Positions 51,574 through 57,575 of a stretch of 64,000 nt of DNA are shown here, piece by piece. Made by a program: the position numbers and the translations under genes. The notes beneath the pieces were generated by a model, which did not search any database, was not told the DNA's origin, and worked only from the letters and a program-made list of their open reading frames with translations. This DNA is from Octopus vulgaris (Eukaryota): positions 7,006,001 to 7,070,000 of the forward strand of contig OX597825.1 of the NCBI GenBank assembly GCA_951406725.2, written 5' to 3'. How positions within the stretch are numbered: the stretch's first letter is position 1; each line of letters begins with the position of its first letter.

Positions 51574-51678
51574 AAGACACCTGATGAAGGCTGGAGGAAC
51601 AACAAACCAGATGAGGACAAATATCCGTCAAATGTAAATAATGTACATAATCTCTCATCTTTTAACTCTAGAACTGTA
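51574..51678 (+). mobile_element. Family F 3' fragment with hammerhead half deleted
   Basis: GACACCTGATGAAGGCTGGAG then AACAACAAACCAGATGAGGACAAATATCCGTCAAATGTAAATAATGTACATAAT. Confidence 0.7.
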
Positions 51679-52604: not shown

Positions 52605-52965
52605 TTCTTTATTGCTTGTTTCAGTCTTTAGATTGTGGCCATGCTGGGGCACTGTCTTGAAGAGTTCTTAGTTGAACGAATTGACCTCAGTACTTTTCTT
52701 TTTACCTTGGTACTTATTCTATCAGTCTCTTTTGCTGAACTGCTAAATTACAGGGACTTGAACAAAACAAGTGATGATGGGGGACAAAACAGACACAAAG
52801 ACACACTCCCCTACATACACATGCACAATGGGCTTTTTTCAGATCCTGCCAACCAAATTCACCCACAGGGCTTTCGTTGGCCCAGGGCCATGGTAAAAAT
52901 CACTTTCTTCTCAAGGTGCTACACAGTGGGAATGAACCCAGAACCATGTGGTTAGAAAGCAAGGT
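52605..52965 (-). mobile_element. SINE family A, old diverged copy
   Basis: Recognisable reverse complement of A. Confidence 0.75.
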
Positions 52966-54353: not shown

Positions 54354-54532
54354 TAGTGCCTTATTATTTAACACACTCACTGGTAAAGTTTCCACTCATT
54401 TACTTATTTATTTTTTGTTGCATCTTGCAACCTTTTCAATGACTATTGCAAGAAGCAATGAAAATTTTAGAAAAATAAATTAGTAAATGAGTGGAAACTT
54501 TACTGATGAGTGTGTTAAATAAGAAGGCACTA
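54354..54532. repeat. ~180 bp fold-back centred on a U3-A8 hammerhead-like motif
   Basis: TAGTGCCTT..CCACTCATTTACT pairs with AGTAAATGAGTGG..AAGGCACTA; the two central arms together give CTA TTGAAAA G GTTGC AAGAN GCAAY GAAA AT TT TAG. Confidence 0.8.
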
Positions 54533-55445
54533 AAAGAGATCGACTCTTCCCAGACATAACAAAATATGCTTCAACACACGAACACACATAAAGAATCTTG
54601 CAAGACAAATCAAAAAAATGAAGTAAAAAATAGTATTACAGAAGAATAAAGCTAATATTAAAAAGTCAATATAAGACTTCAAGCTAATATTAAGACTCAG
54701 TGCTAGACTTCAAGCATATAATAAACTCTAAGTTAAGGGAATTGAAAAATACATATTAGCAGTGTTGTGTAGCCACTACTCCGTAGTGTTATTCAAAGAG
54801 TACACTCAAAGAGGGTCTAATACAAACAGAAAACTACTACAAAATAACAACAGTTGGAGTAGAAAATTACTTAGAAGCAACAAAAGATAGATTAATATGT
54901 GTAATAAAGAATTCTGCTAAAGAAATAAATGAACTCTTCTTTGCATCTATATTATAATGGTGTATTTGGAAATGAAGTAGAAACTGGAAAGTAACCACAC
55001 TGAAGAATAAGATTTACATCATGACAAAACAATAGGAAGAATTCTTGCCAAGTCCGAGTAAATTCACAGACATGATAAAGTTAGCAGTTATTTTTATTGG
55101 GCAATATGCCAACACTTCGATGCATAAAAAGATAAAGTGGTGTAAGCATGTAGCAATCAGAATACATCCAGTGACTTGGAAACAATCAGCTGAGACAATT
55201 CTGTCAATATTGACAAGAAAATCAAATCGAACTGTCCAGATACAATAAGCAGGAACTGAAGCAGAAATGGGTGTCTGTGATAGAGGGATCAATCCTTGGT
55301 TGACCCAAACACTGCCCAAACACAATGGGGATTAGCTGTGAAAATATAAAGATCTTAGCAACAACAATTGCAGCGTGGAAGGTGTTTATAAGCCATTTAA
55401 GAAACACACAAAAACTGTTAGATTCACTTCAACATTTAAATTTAA

Positions 55446-55497
55446 TTTGTCAAAATATTTTCGGCGCTTTGAGACCGTGACCTGTTCACTGAAAAAA
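55446..55497 (-). ncRNA. Degenerate hammerhead-like motif with G3-C8 core
   Basis: Minus strand: TTTTTCA GTGAACA G GTCAC ggtctcaaa GCGCC GAAA ATAT TT TGACAAA; helix I has one mismatch and helix II has two. Confidence 0.4.
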
Positions 55498-55827
55498 CTT
55501 TGTGCTGCATCTCAGATCAAGTCACTCGCTATGCAAGTACATCTGCCATAAAGATCTTGAAACTGGAATAAGCAGCATATGAGGTATGAAAGTAAAGATA
55601 GTACCAATAATAATTGAAGCATGGGATATGAGACTGTTCACACAATAAAGGAATGGAAACAAGTCATACAAGAGCTCTTACGGTTTAGTTGAGAAGATAA
55701 CTGCAATAGGCACAACCTACAACCAAGGGTAAGACACTTTCAGTTTAATGTGTCATGATCTCTTGTTTATTAGCCACAAGAACTCAAAAAATAGAAAAAG
55801 TAAATGAGTTTCATTGGGGATTAAAAA

Positions 55828-56433
55828 GAAGAGGAATTGTACCTTATTTACATTATTTACATTCAACAGATATTTGCCCTCATCTTTTTTGTTGTTAACA
55901 CAATGTTTCGGCTGATTTACTCTCCAGCCTTCATCAGGTGTCCTCGTAGAATTTGCACCCAACCCTGGGTTCTCATTCCTAAGGTATTTTTTTTGCTGAT
56001 GTTATTATTATTATTGTCGTCGTCGTCGTCGTCATCATTATTATTATTATTATTTTTTCAAGACACTGCCTGGAATTGAACTCGCAATCTTGGGGTTAGT
56101 AACCTGCACTCTTAACCATTATGCTATATGCCCCTGGTTAAGAGCGTGGACTACTAACCCCAAGATTCCGAGCTCAATTCCAGGCAGTACCTTGAATAAA
56201 TAATAATAATAATGATAATAATAATAATAATAATAATTGTAAAAACAACATCAGCAAAAAAATACCTAAGGAATGAGAACCAGTGTTGGGTTCAAAATTC
56301 TACCAGGACACCTGATGAAGTTCAGAGAGTAAATTAGCTGAAACGTTGTGTTAACATCAAACAAGATGAGGATAGATATCCGTTCTGTCCAATGTAAATA
56401 ATGTACAGAATTCCTCATCTCAAAAATACAGAA
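55828..56433. mobile_element. Head-to-head inverted pair of family F elements (minus 55828-56134, plus 56135-56433), each with a hammerhead-like motif
   Basis: 55897-55942(-): GACAC CTGATGA A GGCTG gagagtaaat CAGCC GAAA CA TT GTGTT; 56307-56352(+): GACAC CTGATGA .. GAAA CG TT GTGTT; tRNA-like heads meet at about 56135. Confidence 0.82.
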
Positions 56434-57469
56434 CAAGAGAAACTGTGTATTGTGAAAAAGACAAAGGGGTGGTTGAGAGGCATACAGTGTATGGAAAGAT
56501 GTAAAGAGAATATTAAATAGACACATGTTCATATATATGCGCACACATATACATATATATATATCCATACATATTCACACACACACATGTATACATATTT
56601 ACATATATTTGCATAGAAATAAAGAAATTTAAAAATCACAATAATAAAAAAGAAAACAAAGAAATATAATTGAAGAAAATAAAACATGAAACATTACTGG
56701 TTACACTGTACTCCACCTCCACAACCCCATTCTCTTAATCATTTCTCAAACTGTGTTTGGGTGCAACAGAATGCACCAATAAGCATTTTAAAAGTAATTT
56801 GGTGTCAACACCCCCTGCCTCACCCTCCAAAAGTCATCAGCAACTTGAGGGTAATCTCTTTTAAGTTTGGTGTAATGTCTTAATTTTCTTTTTACTAATA
56901 AACTATTCTTATTTGTTGTACATTCTGAACTTTACTGTTTTTATGTCATTCTAACTTCTTCAGAAAGTCTGTGGCACCACAGATGTGTAAATTTGTCTAT
57001 TAACTTTTTTGTTTGATTTTCAAAGAAACTCTTGGTTCATCTTCTTGGTTTCCATTTCCTTCTTTATTTCCTGAGGCCAGATTTCATTGTCATTTACAAA
57101 AATTTCTCTTCTTTCACTTATTTTATGTTCAGCTTTTGTTTGAAGTTTTCTTTCATATTTTTACTAACTGCTTCTTAGTTTCCATTTGTAATTATTATTT
57201 ATTTGTCATCACACAATGAAAATGTGGTACTATAGGTTGGAGCTGTTAAGTGATGAGATGTTTTCTCATCTATTTCTGATACTGGTCATAAAAGTATTAC
57301 ACTTGCTATCTCCAGAGTTTTGGTTGGTGCTGCTCTGGAATTTGGTGTCTATTGTTTATTTTCATCTCATTTTTTTTTTGCATAATTTTTCCCGTTTTTT
57401 TTCTGGCATTTATTTACCTCAAAAGTAAAATTTACTCTGACAAATATGACAACAAGGTTTCTACAGTCC

Positions 57470-57575
57470 AAGTCTATAGTAGAAGACACTTGCCAAAGGT
57501 GCAATGCAGTGGGACTGAACCTGAAACCATGTGGTTGCTAAGCAAGCTACTTACCACACAGCCACTCCTGTGCAT
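57470..57575 (-). mobile_element. SINE family A head fragment
   Basis: Reverse complement of the A 5' end. Confidence 0.8.

Follow-up and report, generated by a model that had tools for sequence, protein, structure and literature searches.

Hammerhead motifs with U3-A8 and G3-C8 pairs in the pseudo-LTRs of sister Penelope-like retrotransposon families in the genome of Octopus vulgaris

Two repeats in a stretch of DNA of 64,000 nucleotides (the window) from Octopus vulgaris, here named family A (the repeat at 54354) and family B (the repeat at 55446), are read as decayed copies of minimal type I hammerheads from the pseudo-LTRs (pLTRs) of two sister families of Penelope-like retrotransposons (PLEs), whose intact versions are predicted to cut their own transcript, weakly and probably either as dimers or aided by a protein. 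A probability of about 0.7 is placed on this reading as a whole. In neither family is the canonical C3-G8 identity found, although Watson-Crick pairing at this position is retained, as U3-A8 in family A and as G3-C8 in family B.

Copies of families A and B in the window

The source genome is 2.8 Gb in size and rich in microsatellites. The family A insertion (54354..54624, strand not assigned), recognized from inverted repeat I3 and from the alignment and ends of family copies, with its right end approximate, is an inverted, 5′-truncated pair of PLE pLTRs in which a short inverted arm is followed by a direct arm and a tail. On comparison with family copies, the left arm carries a hammerhead remnant on the minus strand (54417..54439), in which the U3-A8 core (UUGAAAA, 54439-54433), the extra G, and helix II (to 54417) are intact. 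In the right arm, on the plus strand (54443..54470), the complementary set of parts survives: the helix I strands (the first being CTA at 54443-54445), U3-U4-G5 (54446-54448), and GAAA-AT-TT-TAG (54460-54470), which includes GAAA, the AATT palindrome, and U17. Nine nucleotides of the core and helix II are deleted there, and the gap relative to the family lies between two TTG, the position at which the original prediction had placed a microhomology deletion. The other arm had been said to have lost its G12; this nucleotide is indeed gone, but the loss is larger, about 11-12 nt, and takes with it the rest of GAAA, helix III, the site of cleavage, and the helix I 3′ strand; the 5′ strand of helix I is not CTA. 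The decayed start of the family A ORF, with a mutated start codon, is seen in the PLE tail at 54540..54624 (+), where the family tail peptide matches the N-terminus of the 1312-aa ORF of a further family, D.

The family B insertion (55364..55548, minus strand), defined by family alignment and a module map, is a truncated pLTR with a hammerhead and an ORF start, fused to an inverted tail piece. It lies between a 10 bp target-site duplication on the left (55347..55356, +) and the same letters on the right (55549..55558, +). The degenerate hammerhead (55446..55496, −), all pairs of which are restored in family copies, has helix I at 55496-55490/55452-55446, a core from G3 to A9 at 55489-55483 with G3 at 55489 and C8 at 55484, helix II at 55481-55477/55467-55463, and GAAA at 55462-55459; cleavage would be predicted between 55453 and 55452 on the minus strand. 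Relative to the family, three pairs are broken (one of helix I, two of helix II), and the copy misfolds in folding prediction. The ATG at 55396 that begins the first codons of the family B ORF (55364..55396, −) is the same ATG that opens the long ORF at loci L215 and L216, and the inverted tail piece (55509..55548, +) is the reverse complement of the 3′ tail at L036, L053, L057, and L060. Direct checking of the sequence bore out the letters originally given for both repeats, including those of the copy at 55446-55497(−).

Both window copies are predicted to be dead as ribozymes. Neither of them passes a hammerhead descriptor that allows any Watson-Crick 3-8 pair. The same descriptor has four matches in the window, all canonical C3-G8 (39866 and 56312 on the plus strand, 55937 and 16496 on the minus strand), and a stricter descriptor has three, where 60 shuffles gave 0.03 on average. 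No hammerhead, canonical copies included, is among the Rfam matches listed for the window (150 of 152), and no Pfam match over the cut-off was obtained for three ORF pieces near the insertions. Canonical C3-G8 copies of a separate family, F, are present at 55865-55993 and 56256-56384 (an inverted pair), 39866, and 16496, and dispersed repeats at 51598-51674 and 56353-56434 match sequence downstream of family F. Another pair of dispersed repeats, 52913-52963 and 57496-57546, is presumably a common SINE-type repeat.

Intact family members restore a minimal type I hammerhead

The window motifs are real, as broken members of large repeat families in whose intact copies a minimal type I hammerhead can be recognized. 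Intact family A has helix I CUA/UAG, the core UUGAAAA, an extra G, helix II GUUGC/GCAAC, GAA, the palindrome AAUU, and U17; intact family B has helix I UUUGUCA/UGACAAA, the core GUGAACA, an extra G, helix II GUCGC/GCGAC, GAA, the palindrome AAUAUU, and U17. The full set of core nucleotides between helices I and II (U4-G5-A6, A9, G12-A13-A14, A15.1-U16.1, and H17) is present in intact A and B, not in the decayed window copies. Helix III is very short and palindromic in both (AATT in A, AATATT in B), and the extra G between positions 9 and 10.1, together with G10.1-C11.1, is found in 7/7 aligned copies of A, B, and D. Intact copies of A and B pass the descriptor that the window copies fail; of the dinucleotide shuffles, 20,000 per 240-nt unit, none passes. 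The collection of copies genome-wide, in which helices I and II are restored, thus supports the proposal that both repeats are families with hammerhead architecture, and the standard CUGANGA search does miss them, as had been anticipated.

Family A is represented in the genome by 1,946 first-look candidates and by 2,758 exact matches of a 22-mer spanning the core, and family B by 3,767 candidates and 7,287 exact matches of an 18-mer spanning G3-C8; the control count was 0 in each case. Among 30 family B copies chosen by an upstream anchor and not by the core, 26 have G3-C8, the other four being two single changes, one deletion, and one junction. In a set of 67 distinct near-full copies, many of which were chosen by likeness to the hammerhead region, there are 61 G-C, 3 G-G, 1 G-A, 1 G-U, and 1 gapped, with no C-G. 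The reservation made at the outset, that G3-C8 rested on a single degenerate copy, is removed by these counts. For family A, U3-A8 is seen in 13/13 of the hammerheads found among 25 protein-picked loci; at the remaining 12 loci no hammerhead was found within 1.5 kb. The Watson-Crick 3-8 pair read from the two window repeats therefore holds in the copy sets of both families.

The motifs belong to Penelope-like elements

On the evidence of their sequence context, the A and B motifs are placed in the pLTRs of PLEs, a known association. The 'diversified ribozyme repertoire' first suggested is consequently not a host set; it is made up of the pLTR hammerheads of retrotransposons. The intact motif lies 92-135 nt ahead of the start of the ORF (counted after position 3, 103 nt in A, 92 nt in B, and 135 nt in D) and recurs about 1 kb past the GIY-YIG endonuclease. 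A pLTR-ORF-pLTR copy of family B at G000:C4 22.957-22.961 Mb has two direct hammerheads about 4.3 kb apart, one with G3-C8 92 nt before the ATG and the second past the ORF; this copy contains one stop. Hammerheads are thus found on both sides of one ORF in family B, and both downstream and upstream of the ORF, at separate loci, in family A, where the 5′ hammerhead precedes the ORF at L255.

In longer B copies the GIY-YIG ORF is reached through about 1 kb of repeats, and a 1025-aa frame exists. The GIY-YIG domain (PF01541) is matched at the family B loci L125 and L139 with 24.9 and 25.4 bits against a cut-off of 22.6; the family D ORF has no Pfam match, and the domain is recognized in A and D by 53-60 % identity to the B protein. 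The family A ORF is homologous and more decayed, with endonuclease remnants about 1 kb upstream of the hammerhead. For the reverse transcriptase (RT) domain there is no RVT_1 match at L139 (B) or L142 (D); the YVDD motif is present, and BLASTP to an RVT_1-bearing PLE gives E values of 2e-7 and 6e-10.

Most genomic copies are short 3′-end fragments, often inverted, with tails and target duplications of about 7-14 bp. In family A the inverted arm stops about 55 nt before the other end is reached; of the 15 copies with the left end found, about 11 have a short target duplication, as read by eye. Family B copies are organized likewise; the inversion point varies among them, and they have (TA)n neighbours. 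A tail with inversion is described as a PLE hallmark (Craig et al., 2021), and the elements resemble, as that account sets them out, the EN+ PLEs with a CX2-5CxxC linker (Neptune or Nematis) in the C-terminal GIY-YIG domain, the linker cysteines, the tail on one end, the inverted 5′-truncated copies, and the (TA)n bias. The linker cysteines of the A, B, and D elements fit Neptune or Nematis alike. Their RT motifs we take to be Nematis-like. The 3′ untranslated region of B, of about 1 kb (also that of A and D; L139, L140, L125), contains (TACA)n and (TA)n microsatellites of its own, and simple repeats would therefore be spread with the elements.

It is very improbable that the families are MITEs (inverted-repeat DNA transposons) or other palindromic repeats with hairpins that look like hammerheads by chance. 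As such repeats would be, the copy of A in the window is palindromic (180 bp), and so are the top-scoring copies, which are also short. A MITE would, however, have fixed terminal inverted repeats, a short target duplication of fixed length, and no RT partner, whereas here the inversion points vary, the ends are asymmetric with a tail on one of them only, the target duplications range over several lengths, and copies of the sequence lie on the flanks of RT-like and GIY-YIG ORFs. Shuffled sequences never pass the descriptor, and the full-length pLTR-ORF-pLTR copy contradicts a MITE directly. Likewise, non-LTR retrozymes, which are head-to-tail tandems of non-coding units each with a hammerhead, were rejected on the dispersed or inverted arrangement of the copies. 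Multiple copies on the same strand occur only at L038/L040 (one place) and L041 among 30 B loci, with unrelated DNA between them. A pair 3.5 kb apart at C2:171.24 Mb has no ORF between its members. Opposite the B hammerhead, the other strand also has an open frame, which was discarded as a candidate; the inverted tail partly accounts for it, and the true ORF is on the hammerhead strand.

Covariation of the 3-8 pair among sister families

By protein comparison, families A and B are not unrelated and are assigned to sister PLE families. Between the best-preserved copies, protein identity is 53-54 % for A and B, 60 % for A and D, and 54 % for B and D, compared with 20-27 % to another, unrelated PLE; more decayed A copies have 46-50 % identity to B. 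At the same place in these elements, positions 3 and 8 form U-A in family A and G-C in family B; family D has C-G, and a further family, G, has U-G.

Family D is young and was found by protein search with B. It has 1312-aa frames and many long open frames, and its pLTR hammerhead (L142:6883-6935 on G000:C15, also L143, L144, L148, L149, and L244-L258) has C3-G8 with A9 changed to C. Young copies have U17, and several older copies have C17. Family G is old (194 exact matches; loci L284-L313), and its helices I and II match those of B. In the 16 alignable G copies, the remaining 14/30 loci having been dropped as too diverged or truncated upstream, the pair is U3-G8 in 11, U-A in 3, C-G in 1, and A-G in 1. 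Another old family, E (L264-L275), has canonical C3-G8 and a helix I that is not cleanly restored, with a mismatch next to the core. Both E and G are tied to the clade by their tails, 62-79 % identical to the N-terminus of D over 24-29 aa, and not by full protein.

A structure-blind MAFFT alignment of three A, three B, and one D copies brought the cores into register, with GC, UA, and CG at the 3-8 pair. Two helix II pairs in this alignment are changed on both sides, and 42/42 cells are paired, helix I having been left out of the count because the aligner put family A off by two columns. The shuffle control gave 0/500; it ignores relatedness, and another measure in it was unremarkable (204/500). 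The covariation covers four or five families and the alignment sample is small. Taken together, the 3-8 states across A, B, D, and G are interpreted as covariation between homologues, accompanied by compensatory changes in helix II.

Natural covariation of C-G, U-A, and G-C cores had been predicted across the families of the window, family F included. It stands among the homologous families A, B, D, and G, but not for the comparison with family F, which shows no homology to A or B and was rejected as a covariation partner; that A and B are unlike F in sequence had itself been correctly noted. Neither A, B, nor F pieces gave a blastn match to 20 GIY-YIG loci. A C3-G8 subfamily of B was also considered and rejected. 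The candidate came from 336 genome matches with both positions changed in B-like flanks, with C-G in 75 of the first 100 listed (hand count), but of 22 motifs from 20 places only 2, one U-G and one A-A and both decayed, belong to B; the others are mostly E and G.

Two transitions, with the U-G wobble as intermediate, can convert C-G to U-A, whereas two transversions are needed to reach G-C. That one PLE clade in one genome preserves four 3-8 states, and that the G3-C8 hammerhead fixed in family B, an element of >7,000 copies that was mobile recently, is an active natural ribozyme, is put forward tentatively, at slightly less than even odds. If true, this would be a natural record of the path through the wobble and of the double-transversion jump, perhaps enabled by U17.

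Other U3-A8 hammerheads were encountered. A young, distantly related PLE (L081:2164-5420, L068-L075, L079), with a 781-aa RT-EN frame after an overlapping upstream frame, has a U3-A8 hammerhead with an ACAUGU palindrome, and two further families of U3-A8 hammerhead-like motifs were seen (L145:7845, L079:26, and L158:4014 and 3385). U3-A8 seems to be common in this genome.

Selection, folding, and predicted cleavage

A mechanism may be proposed for the elements from PLE biology and what is known of the hammerhead fold; its observed parts are position, architecture, pairing, and copy structure. The element would be transcribed from or through its pLTR, and helix III would be stabilized by two hammerheads in one tandem transcript, or by the protein of the element. 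Cutting of the RNA after U17 would then separate the element RNA from the rest of a read-through or tandem transcript. The 3-8 pair would be held by selection on the master elements, presumably because the active core needs the pair, and U17 would spare family B the competing Watson-Crick pair G3-C17. A G3-C8 variant is reported to work better when position 17 is not C, in a remark for which the data are not shown in that source (Kalweit and Hammann, PMC3884650). The U17 of B fits the remark; since U17 is shared with A, G, and young D, its role is permissive at most.

In two intact B copies helices I and II are present in the minimum-energy fold (z −3.5 and −2.3), to which a G3-U17 wobble is added that competes with G3-C8. 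Helix I of family A is only 3 bp, and in the folded A copy, L168, which has a helix I mismatch, the core pairs with a U-run instead. By nearest-neighbour energies the strand-swapped dimer is not favoured, least of all in A (−27.2 vs 2 x −14.7 kcal/mol for B, −5.4 vs 2 x −6.0 for A). Small PLE hammerhead variants that cleave as dimers were reportedly described by Lunse, Weinberg, and Breaker in 2017.

Among B subfamilies, common variants occupy 4/8 loop II columns and 8/102 outside columns, and 0/42 columns of the core, helices, and palindrome; the copies were partly picked by likeness, and the pattern is suggestive of selection on the motif. Family B is also present in contigs of four public runs with four organism labels, in which the only common substitution within the motif is U-A to U-G in helix I. 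These contigs show neither strand nor ends and are neutral on expression.

It is unlikely, though a reading to be taken seriously, that the motifs are derived from hammerheads and no longer cleave, the fold being either kept for another job of the element RNA (protein binding, translation start, or template handling) or merely inherited, with G3-C8 a residue of past selection or luck. The unfavourable dimer energies fit such a loss, as do the changes in two sister families: family E lacks a clean helix I, and the A9 to C change in the core of young family D hints at relaxed constraint. Published cases point the same way, since hammerhead mutants of an anole element are described as having no effect on insertion in vitro, with no RNA-seq ends found at the cut site in that work (PMC11167929), and Naiad PLEs are said in the literature seen to thrive without hammerheads. 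Against it, the unpaired catalytic letters U4, G5, A6, G12, A13, A14, and A15.1-U16.1 are conserved in all four of A, B, D, and G, whose loops vary, and without selection a Watson-Crick outcome, in B at the cost of two transversions, would not be expected in family after family. Weak self-cleavage of the intact versions is the preferred reading.

Comparison with known hammerheads

The motifs are like the minimal type I hammerheads reported in metazoan PLEs (Cervera and de la Peña, 2014, PMC4209133) in their pLTR position, the extra nucleotide after A9, G10.1-C11.1, the short helix I, the palindromic helix III, and the pairs of copies on opposite strands. That study includes natural U3-A8 in the Cercyon element of Schistosoma, with about 1,300 matches, and its 56 representative motifs include two U3-A8, one U3-G8 (Saccoglossus), and no G3-C8. 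The natural covariation of C3-G8 to U3-A8 is also known from Perreault et al. (2011, PMC3088659), which shares U3-A8 with the families described here and in whose main text passages no natural G3-C8 is named. U3-A8 and U3-G8 in PLE hammerheads are, on these sources, already published, and U3-A8 counts as an accepted variant. The set of Cervera and de la Peña differs in having neither G3-C8 nor, in the material seen, four 3-8 states shown in homologous sister families.

Metazoan minimal hammerheads are reported to cleave poorly. In the Poseidon element of the green anole, cleavage is described as needing the protein of the element and insertion as not needing cleavage; an engineered C3G/G8C double mutant partly rescued cleavage, only with that protein present (PMC11167929). 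Partial rescue by this double mutant is also given in a review, where G8C alone is quoted as a 10^5-fold loss (PMC8495972). G3-C8 in these accounts is a laboratory mutant; in family B, which has thousands of copies and long ORFs, it is naturally fixed. Natural G3-C8 was not found in full-text searches of the literature, to which figures are closed and in which two-letter position names are not searchable, and none was found in the covered parts of the literature on natural G3-C8 and PLE hammerheads, which include PMC6155905, PMC6765202, bioRxiv 2021.04.23.441226, bioRxiv 2026.07.22.740005, and PMC11014351. Within that scope, the fixation of G3-C8 in a large family whose sisters have C-G and U-G seems to be new.

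Significance

PLE hammerheads cleave poorly in vitro, and some clades of PLEs are without them. A compensatory 3-8 change among homologous families is genetic evidence of selection on the active fold, of a kind not available from a single family. With a natural G3-C8 core, a swap otherwise known, in the literature searched, only as a partly rescuing mutant would have its counterpart in nature, and the C-G, U-G, U-A, and G-C states in related scaffolds form a ready test set. Hammerheads are also undercounted by CUGANGA descriptors and by Rfam, by thousands of copies in this one genome.
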